A stretch of 64,000 nt of DNA from a virus. Its lineage: Duplodnaviria > Heunggongvirae > Uroviricota > Caudoviricetes. Positions 30,317 through 49,178 of this stretch are shown here, piece by piece; the stretch's first letter is position 1; each line of letters opens with the position of its first letter. The position numbers were made by a program, and so were the translations under genes. Under the pieces are notes generated by a model. That model was not told where the DNA came from and searched no databases. It worked only from the letters and a program-made list of their open reading frames with translations. The DNA is taken from the IMG/VR virus record IMGVR_UViG_3300017650_000002, one strand, 5' to 3'.

Positions 30317-30469
30317 GGTCGTAAGTAAAGTTCACTAGTCAGATAGTCTACCAAAGCTGACACAATTCCTTGGTAGCCAAGTTGGTAAGGCAGCACACTG
30401 TTAATGTGCCTACGCGCTAGTTTGGTCCTGGACCAAGATGGAATCTTTAATCAAACCTGGGGGCTATAG

Positions 30470-30856
30470 TTGTCAAAAAGTAAAAAGGACCTCCAACTTG
30501 GAATGAGTGTAAGTACAGCGCAGTCTAGGCTCCTAAGGGATATATTGTGGTCCCTAGTCGTGGAGACTGGTAGAAATTACTGCTGCAAGTGCAAAGAAGT
30601 TATGGATAGGAATACGTTTTCTATTGAGCATATAAAGCCGTGGCTGGACAGTGAGGATCCAGTTGGTTTATTTTACGACCTAGAAAATATATCGTTCTCC
30701 CACTTAACCTGCAACATATCCAATGCCAGAAGGGTTGTGGTATACAGAAAAGGCCAGGAAAGAGACAATAGAACAAAAGAACTAAACAGGTTGAGTAAGA
30801 GAAGAAACTACTGTCCAGACAAGAGAAGAGAAAAATATCTCCTGACGGGTAAGTAA
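30470..30856 (+). CDS. small HNH endonuclease
   Basis: CCKCKEV ... SIEHIKP ... SFSHLTCN (HNH Cys/His/Asn pattern). Confidence 0.5.
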   Translation: MSKSKKDLQLGMSVSTAQSRLLRDILWSLVVETGRNYCCKCKEVMDRNTFSIEHIKPWLDSEDPVGLFYDLENISFSHLTCNISNARRVVVYRKGQERDNRTKELNRLSKRRNYCPDKRREKYLLTGK

Positions 30857-30881
30857 ATCTAGCCCAGGGAGCCAAAATTAA

Positions 30882-30957
30882 TGCGGGAGGGAGGCAAGGT
30901 GTTCTCACGACTCTCATAAGGTCGCCTAGCTGGGTTCGATTCCCAGTCCCGCAACCA
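30882..30957 (+). tRNA. tRNA-Met/Ile2 (anticodon CAU)
   Basis: Manual cloverleaf: acceptor TGCGGGA/TCCCGCA, D GAGG/TCTC, anticodon stem CGACT/GGTCG with loop CTCATAA, T-arm CTGGG-TTCGATT-CCCAG, encoded CCA. Confidence 0.6.
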
Positions 30958-31211
30958 GCGTTGCTCTGGGAAATCCCATCCGGGTTAGTACAATCGTCAG
31001 AGCTAGGAAATCAGCAAACACCGGTAGTGCTGAGGACGACAATAGCTTCCGGGAAGCTCTAGTAATGCCGATTTGTCTTAGTGGCGTTCCTGCTTCACTT
31101 TGAACGACAGTACTAGAGTTAGGGCAGGGTCTTTAAGGCACAGGATCAGTGCTAAAGCCCTCTTCCTCCAGGATAGAGCCTAATAGGCCCCCGGAATAGG
31201 GGCAAGAATTT

Positions 31212-31285
31212 GCAGGTAAGCACAAGGTGTGCCGCAGGCCTTCCAAGCCTCGCAGAGTACGGTTCGATTCCGTCTACCCGCTCCA
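31212..31285 (+). tRNA. tRNA-like sequence, possibly tRNA-Gly(UCC), with non-canonical short D-arm (may be degenerate)
   Basis: Good T-arm (GGTTCGATTCC) and CCA; anticodon loop CTTCCAA; acceptor 6/7 paired; D-loop only 3 nt. Confidence 0.3.
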
Positions 31286-31292
31286 TTTTAAA

Positions 31293-31368
31293 GCTGTTGT
31301 AGCTCAGTTGGCAGAGCGCTTCACTTGTAATGAAGATGTCGTGAGTTCGATTCTTACCAACAGCACCA
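31293..31368 (+). tRNA. tRNA-Thr (anticodon UGU)
   Basis: Perfect cloverleaf: acceptor GCTGTTG/CAACAGC, D GCTC-AGTTGGCA-GAGC, anticodon stem CTTCA/TGAAG with loop CTTGTAA, T-arm GTGAG-TTCGATT-CTTAC, CCA. Confidence 0.85.
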
Positions 31369-31382
31369 GATAAGGAACTACA

Positions 31383-32039
31383 ATGGCTAAGCCAAAAAAT
31401 AAGTGGGAAGAAGGCCAGATGTTGGAGCTTATTGGGTTTGACCATTTTTACGTAAAACCTTCTGATGGCAAGAAGGAAAAACGGTTTAAATTCCTGTGCC
31501 ATTGTGGAAATACTGTGGTGACTTCAAAGAGAAAGGTTGAGACAGGTCACACAAAATCATGCGGATGCCTTAAGGTGACTCATGGTATGAAGAGCCATGA
31601 ACTGTATAATGTGTGGAACCTTATGCATCAAAGGTGCAAAAATACTAAATTTAGTAAGTACAAGAACTATGGAGGCCGTGGCATACGTGTGTGCGACGAG
31701 TGGAGTAATCCAATAACAGGATTTAGTTCATTCCTTTCCCACGTAGGAGAAAGGCCAGGGGATGAATATACACTGGAACGTGTCGATGTTGACGGGGACT
31801 ACTGTCCTGGAAATGTGGCGTGGACAAATGATAACTCCTTACAAGTCTTTAATCAGACTGTTAGGGAAAATAACACCTCAGGTAAAACTGGGGTGAGTTA
31901 CGACAAGTCTTGCGGTAAGTGGTGTGCCACAATTAGCAAGGGAGGTATCTCAAAGAAGCGTAAGTTTTCTACTTTCGATCTTGCCTCTGAACAGAGGGAT
32001 GCCTGGGAAATCGAATTTTATGGATTTTTAAAGAAATGA
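31383..32039 (+). CDS. homing-endonuclease-like protein (Zn-finger N-term + HNH_3-like + AP2 domain)
   Basis: LYNVWNLMHQRCKN...YGGRGIRVCDEW...ERVDVDGDYCPGNVAWTN and AP2-like GKTGVSYDKSCGKWCATISKGG...FSTFDLASEQRDAW; starts 15 nt after tRNA-Thr. Confidence 0.6.
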   Translation: MAKPKNKWEEGQMLELIGFDHFYVKPSDGKKEKRFKFLCHCGNTVVTSKRKVETGHTKSCGCLKVTHGMKSHELYNVWNLMHQRCKNTKFSKYKNYGGRGIRVCDEWSNPITGFSSFLSHVGERPGDEYTLERVDVDGDYCPGNVAWTNDNSLQVFNQTVRENNTSGKTGVSYDKSCGKWCATISKGGISKKRKFSTFDLASEQRDAWEIEFYGFLKK

Positions 32040-32455
32040 CACAACAGAATTCATCGTGGGTAAAGGGAGGAGGGTCCCCAAATCCTTCAGGAAGGCCTCC
32101 AGGCCAAATTAGTAAGCCTATTTCTCCTCTCCGTAAGACTTTGAACAAGCTGAAGGAGCTAGAAGATCAGGCCCTAGAGAATATCTCTGCTGTAGTGAAT
32201 GGGACAAAAATTGTCCTGGATGGCAAGGAAGAGGAAGTGGATAAGCAGAAGCTTGAAACTTCTAAGTGGGTAGTAGGCTCAATTGCCTCCCTAACTCGTG
32301 CTGCACTACAAGATGAGGAACTACGTCTGAAGATCAAGATGGGAAATCTGGAACCAAGCCCAGATAGTCCAACATCAAAACAAGAGGACGAGGATGAAGG
32401 AAAAGAAGTTAAGGCTTCATTCTCCCTGTCTCTTGTAAAAGACACGAAAGAGTAA
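32036..32455 (+). CDS. DUF5681-like protein (possible small terminase-like subunit), low-complexity acidic C-terminus
   Basis: N-terminal WVKGGGSPNPSGRP resembles the WxxGQSGNPxGRP signature of DUF5681 proteins that accompany large terminases; ATGA overlap with the upstream endonuclease gene. Confidence 0.4.
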   Translation: MTQQNSSWVKGGGSPNPSGRPPGQISKPISPLRKTLNKLKELEDQALENISAVVNGTKIVLDGKEEEVDKQKLETSKWVVGSIASLTRAALQDEELRLKIKMGNLEPSPDSPTSKQEDEDEGKEVKASFSLSLVKDTKE

Positions 32456-32532
32456 CTATCCGTAGGAAAGTCAGGTAATCCACTTCATTTGGAATGAAGA
32501 GACCGCTGGATCGAAGCCAGCCGGGTAGACCA
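32456..32532 (+). tRNA. tRNA-Pro (anticodon UGG)
   Basis: Acceptor CTATCCG/CGGGTAG, U8A9, anticodon stem CTTCA/TGAAG with loop TTTGGAA, T-arm GCTGG-ATCGAAG-CCAGC (A at position 54 is unusual), CCA. Confidence 0.6.
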
Positions 32533-32537
32533 TATAT

Positions 32538-32620
32538 GGGCGAGTGGTGTAATGGTAGCCACGGTGGTCTTAGAAGCCACTGCTTTTAGCGTGTCAGTTC
32601 GAGTCTGACCTTGCCCACCA
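32538..32620 (+). tRNA. tRNA-Leu (anticodon UAG), class II with long variable arm
   Basis: Acceptor GGGCGAG/CTTGCCC, anticodon stem GTGGT/GCCAC with loop CTTAGAA, 12-nt variable arm with GCT/AGC stem, T-arm GTCAG-TTCGAGT-CTGAC, CCA. Confidence 0.75.
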
Positions 32621-32626
32621 AAATAA

Positions 32627-32702
32627 GTTGCTATCGTCTAAAGGTTAGGACTACAGGTTTTCAACCTGTCAATCGCGGGTTCAAGTCCCCGTGGCAACTC
32701 CA
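32627..32702 (+). tRNA. tRNA-Glu (anticodon UUC)
   Basis: Acceptor GTTGCTA/TGGCAAC, D GTCT/GGAC, anticodon stem ACAGG/CCTGT with loop TTTTCAA, CCA; the T-stem has only 3 clean pairs (GCGGG/CCCCG). Confidence 0.55.
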
Positions 32703-33438: not shown

Positions 33439-34818
33439 ATGATTATCGGGCCTAGATCAGAATTCCAGGCCAGATACCTAAATTCTGATGCAGACATCAT
33501 TATTGCTGGAGGTGCGGCAGGAAGCTCTAAATCTTATGTAGGGCTGATGAGGCACATCAGGTGGTTTGAAGATCCATACTATCGTGGGTTCTGTATTCGG
33601 AAAAACTCCACTGCTATTATGAAGGAAGGCGGACTGTTTGATGAAGCTGTAGAGCTTTACAGACAGGTTGAGCCTAAGATTCAAATTAAGTTAAAAGACC
33701 AAAAGATTGTATTCCCATCAAGGGCTTCCGTATCATTCACACACTATGAGAATGACGCAGCAGGAAATACATTCCAAGGGTTGCAACTGTCAAGTGTCTT
33801 CTATGATGAAGCCACGCATGCTGCTGAGAAACACATTTGGTGGCTTGTGTCTCGTTTACGCTCCAAAGCTGCGATGAACCCATGCATCTGGTTGACATGT
33901 AACCCAGATCCAGACTCATACCTAAGGGAATGGGTGGATCCATGGTTATTCCCAGAAGGTCATGAGAAGGCAGGACTTCCAAACCCTGAAAAGAATGGAA
34001 GCGCCAAGTATATCATACGACAAGATGGTGATCTACGTTGGGCGGACACAAAAGAAGAGCTAATCGACCTTTATGGAAAAAACTGGCTTCCAATCGATCA
34101 CAAAGAACAGATTCAGCCAAAGAAGATCGAAGTGCACCTAGGGACCATCTATGATAACCCAACTCTTATGGAAACAAATCCAGGCTACCTATCAAGCCTA
34201 GAGGCTCTTCCAGAGGTTGAGAAGCAGAGGTTGCTACTAGGTAACTGGAACGTCCGTGAACAAGCTAGCTCCTATTTTAGCAGGAACTGGTGTGAGGAAG
34301 TTTCATACATCAATCCAAATGAAATACAGTCCACTGTTAGGACATTTGACTTCGCTATGACATTGAAGTCAGATCTTAACACTTCCCCTGACTACACAGT
34401 TTCAACCTTGATGCACAAGCTGAAGGATGGTACTTATGCTGTAGCTAGTGTAACAAGACATAGAATGCTTTCTGGGGATTGGATTAATTTCATTATAGAA
34501 ATTAGTAAGGATGACCCAAAAGGGACTTCATACTACCTCCCATTAGATCCTGGTCCTATGGCTAAACGTGCACACATAATCCTGAAGAGGGATCTTGCGG
34601 AGCTTGGATTAGCCTGTCAGACAATTAACACAAACAGTTCAAAGCTAGACAGGTTTAGGCCTTTCTCTGCATTTGCTCAAACCGGTGGTGTTAAGTTTGT
34701 AAAGGGCTGTGGGGTTGATTTGGAAAACAAAATCAACAACGAAAACAAGTTTATCTATAATGAGCTTGAAGCCTTTACTGGCGAAAGAAAGAAAGGAGAG
34801 AATGGGCACGACGATTAA
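33439..34818 (+). CDS. terL: terminase large subunit
   Basis: Walker A IIAGGAAGSSKSY, Walker B/coupling VFYDEATH, C-terminal nuclease-domain-sized region. Confidence 0.8.
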   Translation: MIIGPRSEFQARYLNSDADIIIAGGAAGSSKSYVGLMRHIRWFEDPYYRGFCIRKNSTAIMKEGGLFDEAVELYRQVEPKIQIKLKDQKIVFPSRASVSFTHYENDAAGNTFQGLQLSSVFYDEATHAAEKHIWWLVSRLRSKAAMNPCIWLTCNPDPDSYLREWVDPWLFPEGHEKAGLPNPEKNGSAKYIIRQDGDLRWADTKEELIDLYGKNWLPIDHKEQIQPKKIEVHLGTIYDNPTLMETNPGYLSSLEALPEVEKQRLLLGNWNVREQASSYFSRNWCEEVSYINPNEIQSTVRTFDFAMTLKSDLNTSPDYTVSTLMHKLKDGTYAVASVTRHRMLSGDWINFIIEISKDDPKGTSYYLPLDPGPMAKRAHIILKRDLAELGLACQTINTNSSKLDRFRPFSAFAQTGGVKFVKGCGVDLENKINNENKFIYNELEAFTGERKKGENGHDD

Positions 34819-34915
34819 CAAATAGGTCGTCTTTAAATCTATTGAAAACGGTGAAAACCCTCGTAAGAATTTACCTGGACAATACCGTGCGAAGCCTGGC
34901 AACAGGAACGTGTAA

Positions 34916-34954
34916 CGACTATCCCTTCGGGGAGTACACCCAAGTGGGTGGAAG
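34916..34954 (+). repeat. 39-bp intergenic element CGACTATCCCTTCGGGGAGTACACCCAAGTGGGTGGAAG (two hairpins), copy A
   Basis: Identical 39-mer recurs at 47807-47845; both copies are followed ~25-30 bp later by a GATATAGTC motif. Confidence 0.85.
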
Positions 34955-35031
34955 CGGTAGACACACAAAAGTGTGATGATATAGTCTAATCTGCATAGTA
35001 ATATGCAGCAGCCTTAACATGGAGAATTTCT

Positions 35032-35769
35032 ATGGCACATTTAAAAACAAGCATTCAGTATAAAGAATTTTACGAGTCTAACCTTTGGGGAACTATGCAG
35101 GTTGTCGATAGAAAACCTGGAAAGTTGAAGGTTAGGTTTACAGAGACAGGGTATGAGACTTGGGCTTACACCTACAACGTGTTGAACGGAAAAGTTGAAG
35201 ATAAAGTTGCTAGAGAGTCTTCAAAAACTAGGTGGAAACCCTACCATAAAGAGTTTTTGTCAAACTCTGGACATAGGTTCACGGCTTATGAGAAGTTAGG
35301 GAATAAGCTTAGGATTATCTTCCCTGTCACAGGATATTCAACAGTTGTGTACCAGAACAATGCAATTTCGGGTAAGGTTTCAGACCCTTACGAAATTTCT
35401 GTCCTTGGCGTAGGCTTTATTGGGGAATTTGACAAGTCAGTCCCTTATTGGAAACAGGCTAAGCAACTTTGGAATAATATGATGAAACGGTGTTATAACC
35501 CAAATGACACACGTGGATATTTTGGTGAATGCTTTGTTAGTGAAAGTTGGAAATGTTTTTCAAACTTCTTGAATGATATAAAACGATTGGAAGGATTCCA
35601 AGAGTGGTTGTCAGGAAAAATCCCGTATGATCTTGACAAAGATTCAAAGGTACTTGGGAACAAAGTTTATTCTTTTCCAGCTTGTAGATTTCTCCCTAGG
35701 ACTGAGAATAGATCACTAGGGGCAATCAATGCAAGAAAGGCTGGGCCTGTACTAACGACACAGGCTTAA
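35032..35769 (+). CDS. homing-endonuclease-like protein (N-terminal DNA-binding repeats + HNH_3-like core related to 18393/21825/31383)
   Basis: LWNNMMKRCYNP ... DLDKDSKVLGNKVYSFPAC pattern shared with the paralogs; free-standing between terminase and portal. Confidence 0.45.
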   Translation: MAHLKTSIQYKEFYESNLWGTMQVVDRKPGKLKVRFTETGYETWAYTYNVLNGKVEDKVARESSKTRWKPYHKEFLSNSGHRFTAYEKLGNKLRIIFPVTGYSTVVYQNNAISGKVSDPYEISVLGVGFIGEFDKSVPYWKQAKQLWNNMMKRCYNPNDTRGYFGECFVSESWKCFSNFLNDIKRLEGFQEWLSGKIPYDLDKDSKVLGNKVYSFPACRFLPRTENRSLGAINARKAGPVLTTQA

Positions 35770-35889
35770 TACAATGATTGTTGACACAATATCCGATGGA
35801 TTCTATGTGCTTGCCCGTAATAAGAGCATCCCAAGTTTCCACAGTTCGGCTACGAGTTTGATGCAACAAGTTAAATAACTGGAGGGCAA

Positions 35890-45692: not shown

Positions 45693-46013
45693 ATGACAGT
45701 CGCAATTAAAGAACAGCATACAGTGGATATTGGTCAGAATACTTATATCATCACTGCGCTAGGAACTTCAGCTGGGTTTGAAACTATGAAGGTCCTCCGG
45801 GAAGTTGGGGATGAGGGCATCCCTGATCCACTATTCATCCGTAAGCTGATCGTAGGTAGTGTTACAGTCAATAATATGCCTGTTACGGTTGAGAAGTATG
45901 AGCAGATGTTTAGTCGTAAGTTTCACGAGGCTATCGAACTGTTCCAAGCCATCGTTAAGTTTAACTTTGGTGTTGAAGACCCAAACGTTCAGGGCGATAC
46001 GTCAGAGACTTAA
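45693..46013 (+). CDS. tail assembly chaperone (putative)
   Basis: Position between the tube genes and the tape measure gene; 106 aa. Confidence 0.4.
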   Translation: MTVAIKEQHTVDIGQNTYIITALGTSAGFETMKVLREVGDEGIPDPLFIRKLIVGSVTVNNMPVTVEKYEQMFSRKFHEAIELFQAIVKFNFGVEDPNVQGDTSET

Positions 46014-46063: not shown

Positions 46064-46252
46064 ATGCTAAAAGAGTTTCAGGGTGATTGGAGAATCATGA
46101 AGATTTGTATGGCCTCTAGTGATCCAATTGAAACTCTTCACAAGATCAGGACTGACCAGTATTCAATACGGACAGTTCTGGATATCTTGGAGATGTTGGA
46201 TGTAAGGGAAACTATCAGAGAAGATTTATCCAAGAACCCTGCACAACAATAA
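46064..46252 (+). CDS. hypothetical protein (62 aa), possible second tail chaperone ORF
   Basis: Position. Confidence 0.3.
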   Translation: MLKEFQGDWRIMKICMASSDPIETLHKIRTDQYSIRTVLDILEMLDVRETIREDLSKNPAQQ

Positions 46253-46266
46253 TTAAGGAATAAGTT

Positions 46267-47082
46267 ATGACTGCAATTAGTAGCTATTATGCCAACGTTG
46301 GTGTAAGGATAGATAAGTCATCTTTATCTCAAGTTTCTAGATATCTAAGGTCTGTAGAAAACCAAGTCAGAAGGTTTCAAGCTAATATAACAAAGAACTC
46401 TCAGATAAATCTGAAGTTAAATTTGAACAACAAGGCCTTGCTTGGAAATATTAGATCTTTATTTAATAAATCCTCGTCTACATTTAAAATAAACGCAACA
46501 CTGTCTCCTCAGAGTTTAAATCACATGAGGGCACAAATTAGAAGTGCGATTAGCGGTATTACTGTCTCCCCAAGGATTAGACCTAACGTAGTGGCTCCAA
46601 GAAGCCAGCCAGGGTCTTCGGGGGGTAGGCAAACAGGACCAAGCCGTAACCCTACTAGCAGGCCTACAAGCCCATTCCACAACCCTATGATGGTAGGGGG
46701 AGGGGTTGGTGCCTTTATGAGGTATGGCGCATTCTCACTACCATTTGTTGCAGGTTCTTTTGGTTTGAATGCCCTTTCTAACAGGGCCGCAGTATTGCAA
46801 AACCAGGACATGATGATGGACGTGTCCATTGGTGCCCTAGGCTCTGCCGGAGAGTCAGAGAGATACAAGAAGTTTCTTAATGACCTCGGAGATAGGCTAG
46901 GAAGGACAACAGAATCAATGACCCCGTTCTTCTCTCAGATGCTCTCAGGAGCTAAGGGGACGGAACTAGAACCTCACCTCCAAGAGGGATTTGCATCTCT
47001 TATGGAATTTGGTTCAGTGATGGGGCTTGGTACTGAGTCTATGAAGGGAACAATTAAAGCCTTCACCCAAATGATTTTGTAA
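46267..47082 (+). CDS. tape measure protein, N-terminal segment (putative)
   Basis: Low-complexity Ser/Gly/Pro/Asn-rich protein with a Gly-rich hydrophobic patch, followed by an HNH gene and a second TMP-like ORF. Confidence 0.45.
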   Translation: MTAISSYYANVGVRIDKSSLSQVSRYLRSVENQVRRFQANITKNSQINLKLNLNNKALLGNIRSLFNKSSSTFKINATLSPQSLNHMRAQIRSAISGITVSPRIRPNVVAPRSQPGSSGGRQTGPSRNPTSRPTSPFHNPMMVGGGVGAFMRYGAFSLPFVAGSFGLNALSNRAAVLQNQDMMMDVSIGALGSAGESERYKKFLNDLGDRLGRTTESMTPFFSQMLSGAKGTELEPHLQEGFASLMEFGSVMGLGTESMKGTIKAFTQMIL

Positions 47083-47179
47083 TAAAGATCGCTTACAGGG
47101 AAACTTGTAAGGCAATATCTCTTGAAATGCTGGAAACTCCTAAAGATCACACACTACAAAGTAGTCTTAACAGACAAGC

Positions 47180-47207
47180 TTGAATGTTTGAAAAGTTGTG
47201 GTATAAT
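47180..47207 (+). promoter_or_regulatory. sigma70 promoter: -35 TTGAAT, 16-nt spacer, extended -10 TGGTATAAT, driving the HNH gene
   Basis: Read directly. Confidence 0.5.
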
Positions 47208-47231
47208 GAATCCTTTTAGGAGGATTCTGAA

Positions 47232-47795
47232 ATGGACAATCAGCAGGGAAGATTCAAAACTAAAGTAAGACAATATAAAGATTTGCCCTTGTATGTCGCA
47301 GAGGACGGAATTATGTTCAATGCTAAGGGCGAACAGAGGTCTACCCACTTACATCGAAGCGGATATCTTCGAGTTGAGGTAATGGTAAACCGAGTAAGAC
47401 ACATACTGCCAGTTCACAGAACTGTAGCTGAACTCTATCTAGACCCTCCAAGTGAGGGGCTTGTTGATAAGTGTTCCAGAGAGCATTGGGGTAAAGTTCT
47501 AGTGTGTCACAAAGATAATAATGTGTTGAATAACCACTACACAAACCTGTACTGGGGAAGTTTGGACGATAATACAAAACAAGCCTTTAAAGATAAGCTT
47601 GTGTCCAACAGCCCAGGGGAAAGAAACGGACAGGCAAAAATGACCAATGAACTGGTCCATGAAATCTGTAGGTTCTACCAGAATGGTGGTTCTAGAAAGT
47701 CTGCGGAGATTAAGTTTAATATCTCCAGGCATCAGGCTTATTCTATATACACTAGAAGAAAATGGCTAGACATAAGCCAACATTATAAGTTTTGA
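47232..47795 (+). CDS. HNH homing endonuclease (classical HNH_3 type)
   Basis: VCHKDNNVLNNHYTNLYWGS (H-N-N core) and AGGAG RBS; inserted between the two tape-measure-like ORFs. Confidence 0.65.
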   Translation: MDNQQGRFKTKVRQYKDLPLYVAEDGIMFNAKGEQRSTHLHRSGYLRVEVMVNRVRHILPVHRTVAELYLDPPSEGLVDKCSREHWGKVLVCHKDNNVLNNHYTNLYWGSLDDNTKQAFKDKLVSNSPGERNGQAKMTNELVHEICRFYQNGGSRKSAEIKFNISRHQAYSIYTRRKWLDISQHYKF

Positions 47796-47806
47796 ATAAC
47801 CCTCAT

Positions 47807-47845
47807 CGACTATCCCTTCGGGGAGTACACCCAAGTGGGTGGAAG
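47807..47845 (+). repeat. 39-bp intergenic element, copy B (identical to 34916-34954)
   Basis: Exact 39/39 identity. Confidence 0.85.
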
Positions 47846-47975
47846 TGGGAGAGTCCGTAACAGCTAGGCTGATGGATAAGATATAGTCAAGACTTCAAGG
47901 AAACTTGAAGCTGCGTGTAATGACGCGGGGAGTGATTAACGACCATTCCTGAATAAATCGGGTAAACAACAAATT

Positions 47976-49178
47976 ATGGCTGAAGAACTGCGGGGTCAGG
48001 CTGCTGAACACCTACCCCCTGTTGTACGTATGATGGCTGAGGCTGTCACAGGTGGAGACGTGAAGGCACTGAACAAGATGATGGAGAAGGGGGAGTTAGA
48101 CCCCAACAAGCATCTTCCACTATTGTTCAAGGCTATGAGGGCTAATGCCCAGCCATTCATGGAGCAGTATTTTAAAACAATCACATTCTGGCAAGGAAAG
48201 GCTCAGAAAAGCCAGGAGGACTGGCTTAAGAAGTTTCTAGGATCAGGTGGTACTCAAGCTCTAGCTGGCTTCTATAAAACCTGGAATCAGGTCATTGGAG
48301 ATTCCATCCCAATGGCTGAGAAGCTAGGTGGGATATTCAAGAGTATGGTCCACTACTTCAACGCTGCCCTCCTTGCTCCGGGTGAGATTATGGATTGGTT
48401 TAACGGGACAGCCAGAGGTGATAACTTCATGAAGGCTATCTTCGGGGACAGCGCAGACCAATCCTTGGCAGATATTCGTGAAATGTTCTCCACAATTGCA
48501 TCTTCATTCAAGAGTATGATAGATAGCATGACTGGGGATATGACAGGTCTTAGCACTCTGATGGGTGCTGTAGGGGATCTAGTGGGTATGGTTGCGAATG
48601 CCGTTAAAAATCTTATCAGGGTACTGGATGCCTATACAACTGGTGGGTTTTCAGGTATCCAACACGAACTCAAGAGGCAGGACGTAGAAAGATACTACGA
48701 CGGAGTTGCTAGGAGGGAACTGGCAGCTTCTGGCATGGACTACGATGAGAGGGATGTCAGAAAGGTAAGAGAAGGGTATATGATGGATTGGGACAGTAAA
48801 TATTCTGCCCCAAGTGCCCCTCCAGATCAGTCTGCCTCAGCAAGCTTCGGTGGGATGTTATCACAAGGTTATCAAGAGACAAAGGATCTTGTGAACTCCG
48901 GAAACTTCTCTATGGGTGCCCTCTGGGACATTCTAAATAAAGACCGGTCTTCAGGGATTGTTGGTAATGTTCCATCAAACACACCTTCCATAATGTCAGG
49001 ACCATCAGACAGTACAGTTACTGTTAGAGTTATCCAGGATCCATTGCAAGTTAATGCGGTAGTGGAGGCTCGTACAGATGCAGAGGCTGTAGCCCAAGAG
49101 GTTAAAGCCAGAATAGAGGAAAACGACAGGAGAGTTACACAAGGGTTACTATCCAACTTTCCTATGACAGCGCAGTAA
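47976..49178 (+). CDS. tape measure protein, C-terminal segment (putative)
   Basis: 400-aa alpha-helical, Ala/Met/Gly-rich protein immediately upstream of the baseplate genes. Confidence 0.45.
   Translation: MAEELRGQAAEHLPPVVRMMAEAVTGGDVKALNKMMEKGELDPNKHLPLLFKAMRANAQPFMEQYFKTITFWQGKAQKSQEDWLKKFLGSGGTQALAGFYKTWNQVIGDSIPMAEKLGGIFKSMVHYFNAALLAPGEIMDWFNGTARGDNFMKAIFGDSADQSLADIREMFSTIASSFKSMIDSMTGDMTGLSTLMGAVGDLVGMVANAVKNLIRVLDAYTTGGFSGIQHELKRQDVERYYDGVARRELAASGMDYDERDVRKVREGYMMDWDSKYSAPSAPPDQSASASFGGMLSQGYQETKDLVNSGNFSMGALWDILNKDRSSGIVGNVPSNTPSIMSGPSDSTVTVRVIQDPLQVNAVVEARTDAEAVAQEVKARIEENDRRVTQGLLSNFPMTAQ

Follow-up and report, generated by a model that had tools for sequence, protein, structure and literature searches.

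The DNA-polymerase introns of phages SPO1 and SP82 belong to the IA-type group I introns, encode the HNH nicking endonucleases I-HmuI and I-HmuII, and are mobilised by gene conversion. In prophages of the Bacillus cereus group, group I introns (TMP-IVS1, IVS2 and IVS3) occupy three sites in genes for the tape-measure protein (TMP; Tourasse & Kolsto 2008, PMC2504315), and in Cluster J mycobacteriophages spliced introns are found in capsid and tail genes (PMC3706429). Genes are also split by free-standing endonucleases, as with mobE in nrdA of Aeh1 and mobA in T4 gene 39/60 (PMC2988022). Here we describe the TMP locus in a 64,000-nucleotide (nt) stretch of DNA from a virus of the Caudoviricetes (IMG/VR record IMGVR_UViG_3300017650_000002), called the window below. 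This locus very probably holds one TMP gene interrupted by a mobile, HNH-encoding group I intron at 47077-47960, and a single TMP of 675 residues is most likely produced once the RNA has been spliced. Its principal parts are as follows:

46267..47076, plus strand: TMP exon 1, 270 codons, ending ...KAFTQMI, aligned with the intact homologue P0003 over its residues 1-279
47077..47960, plus strand: predicted group I intron of 884 nt, IA2-like architecture with P7.1/P7.2
47232..47795, plus strand: HNH homing endonuclease gene, 187 amino acids (aa), whose start overlaps P5', whose body forms the P6 loop and whose stop lies in P6'
47961..49178, plus strand: TMP exon 2, 405 codons and a stop, starting GKQQIMAEEL..., aligned with residues 280-676 of P0003

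Three open reading frames (ORFs) are present in this region, at 46267-47082 (271 aa), 47232-47795 (187 aa) and 47976-49178 (400 aa), just as an earlier note made from the sequence alone had described them. The gap between the two outer frames (47083-47975) is slightly offset from the inserted element; read on into the intron, the frame of exon 1 yields only a Leu codon and a TAA (47077-47082). The earlier note had taken the outer frames for contiguous N- and C-terminal segments of one TMP of about 670 aa, and this view was borne out. Aligned to intact TMPs of relatives, they fall on adjoining segments of a single protein and not on two different complete proteins, and the joined TMP (675 aa) is colinear with its intact homologues. 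In a protein search, the uninterrupted homologues P0001, P0003-P0007 and P0009 (657-689 aa) covered 100% of the joined TMP, with identities of at most 61%. Furthermore, the Pfam domain TMP_3 (PF20155; curated cutoff 41 bits) is divided between the two ORFs, residues 190-270 of the first corresponding to profile positions 20-101 and residues 2-59 of the second to positions 108-163. Each half separately missed the cutoff (15.9 and 20.5 bits), while the joined protein gave a single TMP_3 stretch, residues 190-333 on profile positions 20-162, with 51.7 bits.

The ends of the intron were sought among all in-frame combinations in which the 5' site follows a U and the 3' site a G. A single pair, U47076/G47961, restored ...AFTQMI/GKQQIMAEEL..., and the peptide across this join, ...KAFTQMIGKQQIMAEELRGQAAEH..., is identical in the intact TMPs P0001 and P0003-P0007. 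Likewise, when frame restoration was examined, the 47076/47961 join alone yielded ...AFTQMIGKQQIM..., as in intact homologues, with G47960 as omega-G. Since no other pair rebuilds the conserved peptide, the intron was delimited to 47077-47960 and the spliced TMP to 675 aa. The predicted ligated-exon RNA would run ...AUGAUU/GGUAAACAA... across the junction, and the cDNA copied from it would read ...CAAAUGAUU/GGUAAACAACAA.... A 3' site after G47951, leading to ...TQMI/NKSGKQQ..., was dropped because NKS is absent from intact homologues. An intein was also dropped, on account of the in-frame TAA at 47080-82 and of the HNH ORF lying in another frame.

The earlier note had described the insert as a free-standing endonuclease cassette, which did not hold: the HNH gene is enclosed by a complete group I ribozyme. 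In a search of 1.4 kb, the full Rfam group I model (RF00028) matched end to end at 47067-47910 with 33.5 bits (E 1.9e-6). The helices were assigned on the template of the ORF-free core of the intron in the window's large-terminase gene, terL, as follows:

P1, 47072-78 / 47085-91: end of the 5' exon and start of the intron with the internal guide sequence; 7/7 pairs in the window and in the related contig L003
P2, 47092-99 / 47104-11: GAAA loop
P3, 47118-24 / 47846-52
P4, 47128-33 / 47240-45
P5, 47138-40 / 47234-36
P6, 47252-59 / 47790-97: 8/8 paired, the loop being the HNH ORF
P7, 47808-12 / 47884-88
P7.1, 47813-16 / 47821-24: UUCG loop
P7.2, 47828-32 / 47837-41
P8, 47855-58, 47861-64 / 47868-75
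P9, 47893-99 / 47904-10: GAAA loop
P9.1, 47911-16 / 47923-28
P9.2, 47929-34 / 47944-49
Omega-G, 47960: terminal G of the intron
47092..47140, plus strand: 5' ribozyme core, comprising the P2 hairpin and the 5' strands of P3, P4 and P5
47846..47960, plus strand: 3' ribozyme core, comprising P3', P8, J8/7-P7' (AAGAUAUAGUC), P9, P9.1, P9.2 and omega-G

All 13 of the 13 helices are fully paired, both in the window and in L003. The core P3-P9 is thus paired throughout, and its J8/7-P7' segment (AAGAUAUAGUC) was aligned to the consensus of the Rfam model. In P1, which is identical in L003, a wobble pair U47076.G47087 marks the 5' splice site. When the ORF was deleted, an unconstrained minimum-free-energy fold of the RNA recovered 67 of the 75 pairs assigned. 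IA-type phage introns are marked by two additional helices, P7.1 and P7.2, that lie between P7 and P3'; as both are present here, the intron was placed among the IA-type, as IA2-like. In addition, each intron half (the non-coding flanks of the HNH gene) separately matched intron regions of phiKZ-like phages, Staphylococcus Kayvirus phages and Salmonella SSE121 phages in a GenBank phage search. No DNA-level relative of the whole phage was found in the GenBank phage collection, where only the intron halves were matched.

Covariation was followed in the 3' domain. A 23-nt piece of the P7-P7.1 core was used as a query and retrieved 18 IMG/VR contigs, and 11 non-identical, diverse 3' domains of related introns were submitted to RNAalifold. 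Unguided, the program predicted P7, P7.1, P7.2, P8 and P9, with pair-keeping changes on both sides in 14 of 27 pairs over these 11 sequences. Between the window and L003, compensatory changes were observed in P7.2 (CACCC/GGGUG to CACUC/GAGUG) and in P9.2 (GGAGUG/CAUUCC to GGAGUA/UACUCC), and a one-sided change from G.U to G:C kept the pairing of P8. In P3 and P4, covariation is seen when the window is set against the terL intron and the related contig L005, P4 being UGCUGG/UCAGCA in the window and UGCGGG/UCCGCA in L005.

As the earlier note had stated, the 187-aa ORF encodes an HNH endonuclease: it matched the PHROGs families phrog_59, 'HNH endonuclease' (E=8e-21), and phrog_959 (E=1e-14), and the HNH motif HKDNNVLNNHYTNL is visible in the protein. 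The Pfam HNH_3 match was weak (14.2 bits, cutoff 24.8), and against PDB sequences the protein gave no meaningful match to any solved structure, I-HmuI included. The gene is maintained by purifying selection, since 49 synonymous and 21 non-synonymous codon differences separate the window from L003. Two elements precede it:

47180..47207, plus strand: promoter-like element in the L5 loop, TTGAAT-16-TGgTATAAT, presumed from its sequence to be the HNH promoter
47208..47227 (47208-15/47220-27), plus strand: hairpin of 8 bp directly after the -10 box, predicted by RNAfold to sequester the HNH Shine-Dalgarno AGGAGG (47218-23)

The -10 element TGGTATAAT (47199-47207) is also kept 5' of the 43%-identical HNH gene of another related contig, L004. 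There, a hairpin of other sequence (UCUUCGAU/GUCGGAGA) stands at the same position over its own Shine-Dalgarno, so that the architecture is conserved and not the sequence. The HNH start AUG-GA (47232-47236) serves as the 3' strand of P5; from there the reading frame crosses P4' and the 5' strand of P6. With the Shine-Dalgarno in the hairpin and the AUG in P5', ribosome loading and ribozyme folding should exclude each other on one RNA. An autorepression operator of the T4 kind found no support: over 20-mers, the homing site and the HNH promoter region resembled each other in 13/20 positions at best, a value reached in 99 of 300 shuffles.

Several points weigh against reading the insert as a spliced, mobile intron. 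The full-length RF00028 score of 33.5 bits stands below the Rfam gathering score of 50, and the covariance model set the 530-nt ORF in P8 and not in P6, misplacing part of the core. The displacement of the ORF into P8 may have depressed the score; once the ORF-free terL core had been compared and the pairing checked, the ORF was placed in P6. By inspection, no complementary register for P10 was found between 47079-47086 and exon 2 (GGUAAAC). As for the extended -10 promoter claimed in the earlier note, a site is indeed present at 47180-47207 and fits the consensus better than any other in the region (10/12). Alone it is not significant, because promoter-like sites in the region were not above expectation (6, against 5.3 +/- 2.4 in shuffled sequence); it is a consensus match only, and the consensus may not be that of the host. 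Finally, we infer splicing, endonuclease activity and homing alike from sequence.

Nevertheless, the other explanations fare worse against the evidence. The earlier note had proposed a two-piece TMP or re-initiation, that is, a free-standing HNH cassette that split the gene, with halves translated separately and assembling as a two-piece tape measure. Cases in which a free-standing endonuclease has divided an essential gene, with two polypeptides that work, are on record (PMC2988022). The second ORF does open with an ATG (47976), and public gene calls list it as a 400-aa protein of its own, P0002, whose public cluster carries no Pfam domain. We nevertheless judge this explanation extremely improbable. 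A complete, covarying ribozyme surrounds the HNH gene, excision at U47076/G47961 restores the conserved peptide to the residue, and each half alone stays below the TMP_3 cutoff. The ATG at 47976 lacks a Shine-Dalgarno and corresponds to a conserved internal Met of the TMP. The five codons 5' of it, GKQQI, are kept as coding, with a synonymous substitution as the sole change relative to L003; such conservation would be pointless if the second ORF were translated on its own, and thus speaks against separate translation.

A milder departure, partial or conditional splicing, would provide a stable 271-aa N-terminal fragment (exon 1 and Leu) that has its own role, or a control of the timing or dosage of tail assembly. 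Translation and splicing compete in T4, where this affects splicing efficiency, and the overlap of the HNH start with P5' would set up the same competition here; moreover, the stop two codons into the intron would give unspliced RNA a defined product. However, an early stop is expected by chance of any intron at a codon boundary, nothing in the sequence requires partial splicing, and intact relatives manage with a single protein, so that we hold it to be very unlikely. That the intron is dead, or the interruption a pseudogene or an artefact of assembly, with a non-functional TMP allele, is a view to which we give almost no credence. The data are metagenomic, and several public contigs do break inside the intron at a 39-nt repeat, yet such breaks are explained by a repeat longer than k=31. 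The same protein is found on 5 contigs that come from several public collections (jgi, lgn, ena); purifying selection acts on the HNH ORF, which is intact; and the same 884-nt intron recurs with no indel in a relative of about 59% exon identity, with compensatory changes in its helices. One TMP gene interrupted by a mobile, spliced group I intron therefore remains the preferred reading.

Under this preferred reading, the late tail-operon transcript would fold into the ribozyme, free guanosine would attack the 5' splice site, and after ligation of the exons one full-length TMP would be translated. On the read-through pre-mRNA, the HNH Shine-Dalgarno would be hidden in its hairpin and the AUG in P5', which would make HNH translation and ribozyme folding mutually exclusive; transcripts from the presumed intron promoter would have their start within the hairpin's 5' arm and so leave the Shine-Dalgarno free. 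In a mixed infection, the HNH endonuclease could cut or nick intron-less TMP alleles near the conserved AFTQMI/GKQQ coding sequence, and repair of the cut allele would copy the intron in.

Relatives with and without an insert bear on this mobility. An 88-kb contig of a relative (L001) carries an intact 676-aa TMP and no group I match in 14 kb, in the same gene order (sheath, tube-like genes, chaperone, TMP, Dit-like, baseplate). The earlier note was right that an HNH-bearing insert interrupts one TMP gene. The intron-less site of L001 reads ...TTCACTCAGATGATT/GGTAAGCAGCAGATTATGGC.... The position of the TMP gene is canonical: a TAC_15-like gene lies upstream and, in relatives and in the contigs of the window itself, Dit_like, Sheath_initiator and wedge genes lie downstream. 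Two small ORFs lie 5' of the TMP gene, at 45693-46013 (tail-assembly-chaperone-like, TAC_15 / phrog_1613) and at 46064-46252, with a gap of 50 nt between them, as in L001. In L003, the intron occupies the same site as in the window with the same 884-nt length and no indel; the two introns are 88.9% identical (94-98% in the RNA-only parts), and the flanking exons 59-60%. Other relatives carry introns at or near this site:

L005: intron 225-1267, splice pair 224/1268, site at -15 nt relative to the window
L007: intron 1473-2495, splice pair 1472/2496, site at -13 nt, within a codon
Window and L003 (intron 815-1698): splice pairs 47076/47961 and 814/1699, site 0
L002: site 0, the contig holding only the 3' end of the intron and exon 2
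L004: intron 1763-2624, splice pair 1762/2625, site at +21 nt

In L004, L005 and L007, both the group I introns (Rfam E 5e-8 to 4e-3) and their HNH genes differ from those of the window, and at each locus one U/G pair restores the conserved TMP peptide. The four insertion sites mapped to the nucleotide (-15, -13, 0 and +21) fall within 36 nt. Two lineages of HNH proteins were distinguished, the window and L003 being 43-46% identical to L004 in one and L005 being 51% identical to L007 in the other, with 23-30% between lineages. In two further IMG/VR contigs (L026 and L027), whose TMPs are about 30% identical, the same intron core and an HNH protein of 32% identity were observed; there the insertion is shifted downstream by about ten positions of the profile (TMP_3 profile 111/118), a placement made at the level of the profile and not of the nucleotide. 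It may be, though we put this forward only tentatively, that the TMP_3 core motif (...TIKAFTQMIGKQQIMAEELRGQ...) is a landing pad for introns of several lineages, with at least four sites in 36 nt and a fifth further downstream, and that each HNH lineage hopped to a neighbouring site. If true, these loci would form a natural series for how intron guide sequence and endonuclease specificity shift together to an adjacent target. More radically, splicing might be incomplete by design, with the 271-aa N-terminal fragment as a second product that has a function.

The Ile codon at site 0 (47074-47076) is ATT in the window, in L003 and in the intron-less L001, and ATC or ATA in L004, L005 and L007. 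The latter alleles lack the U for the site-0 U.G pair, which may mean immunity or incompatibility.

A 39-bp repeat reported in the earlier note proved real, and it links the TMP intron to a second intron of the window:

47807..47845, plus strand: 39-bp repeat, forming the P7 5' strand, P7.1 (UUCG loop) and P7.2 of the ribozyme
34816..35776, plus strand: predicted HNH-bearing group I intron of terL (Rfam 72 bits for 34743-35008, the ORF-free core)
35032-35769: HNH-type endonuclease gene of the terL intron, 245 aa, phrog_2081 (E=2e-45), 3' of the ribozyme core

Positions 47807-47845 and 34916-34954, the latter in the terL intron, are 100% identical (E 2e-16). A 23-nt part of the repeat was exact in 18/18 IMG/VR contigs, all retrieved with that same 23-mer, and in L011 the match across the P7-P7.2 core is 41/42 nt. 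Recent recombination between the two introns was considered as a cause of the 39-nt identity and set aside as not needed: with its 23-nt part invariant by selection in the retrieved contigs, the identity calls for no special explanation. In the search of the whole window, the RF00028 match at the TMP gene reached an E of 8.7e-5 and was the only other significant match apart from tRNAs. Exon 1 of TerL ends at profile position 587/642, so that the unspliced protein looks truncated after ...GHDD; the C-terminus that it lacks, IVDTISDGFYVLARNKSIPSFHSSATSLMQQVK, is encoded by exon 2 (35777-35878). The spliced TerL, ...GENGHDD/IVDTISDG..., lines up with the intact protein of Pseudomonas phage vB_PsaM_M1, ...GESGHED/IVDALADT..., and from this alignment the limits 34816-35776 were set.

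Three independent public contigs (L002, L008 and L009) all begin at the base equivalent to window position 47816, inside the repeat. Assemblies with k=31 would break there because the repeat exceeds 31 nt and the first unique 31-mer ends just past it. The same intron lineage, with an identical 23-nt P7-P7.1 core, was seen in L011, L016, L019, L021, L022, L026 and L027 from IMG/VR. Its host genes encode an SU10-type major capsid protein, a family-A DNA polymerase, Terminase_3, a PhageMin_Tail-type TMP (weak match) and a distant TMP_3. Rfam also placed five clustered tRNA genes at 30367-32699, upstream of the terminase gene.

For annotation, where their main value lies, these results mean that automatic pipelines report two hypothetical proteins with no relation to each other in place of the TMP, and a truncated terminase, and that recognising the introns restores two essential genes. 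For assembly, the shared 39-nt core breaks k=31 assemblies and leaves many 'half TMP' entries in metagenome catalogues. From the biological point of view, a Gram-negative-type, Ounavirinae-like myovirus lineage joins the short list of those with introns in tail and packaging genes. No new mechanism is revealed; the locus offers a compact case of several intron/endonuclease pairs competing for one conserved target of 36 nt.

Compared with the T4 introns of td, nrdB and nrdD (I-TevI, I-TevII, I-TevIII; PMC2988022), the window intron similarly loops its endonuclease ORF out of a peripheral helix. The T4 introns also have an internal promoter of their own and a ribosome-binding site hidden in a hairpin only on read-through (PMC2988022), and the same layout is seen here at 47199-47234. 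However, I-TevI and I-TevII are GIY-YIG enzymes whereas the window enzyme is of the HNH type, and no T4-style, operator-like similarity of homing site and promoter was found for the window intron. The T4 introns lie in early or middle genes of nucleotide metabolism; because the TMP gene is a late structural gene, the early/late logic of T4 may not transfer. As with mobE and mobA, an HNH gene stands between two halves of an essential gene that is annotated as two ORFs. Those systems differ in having no ribozyme and separately translated halves, while here a ribozyme is present and the ATG at 47976 has no Shine-Dalgarno before it. As in SPO1 and SP82, an HNH-family endonuclease is encoded inside a phage group I intron of the IA type. 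The 187-aa protein has no detectable sequence match to I-HmuI, and it may either nick or make a double-strand cut.

The closest parallel is provided by the Bacillus TMP introns (PMC2504315). In both cases, group I introns of the IA1/IA2 kind occupy several alternative sites of a phage TMP gene, the same phage may also carry an intron in its large-terminase gene, and conservation is far higher in the introns than in their host genes, of which the most conserved stretches are targeted. The Bacillus elements belong to siphovirus-type prophages of Gram-positive hosts, with TMPs of more than 1200 aa from another family, whereas the window comes from an uncultured myovirus-type phage with a 675-aa TMP of the TMP_3 family, whose closest cultured relatives are Ounavirinae-like phages of Pseudomonas. 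Furthermore, the three Bacillus sites are spread along the gene while the four nucleotide-mapped sites described here lie within 36 nt, and several of the Bacillus introns lack a complete endonuclease gene while the HNH gene of the window is intact. Not noted before in this phage lineage, the window intron is thus an addition to a known class, introns in TMP genes having been described in 2008 (PMC2504315).

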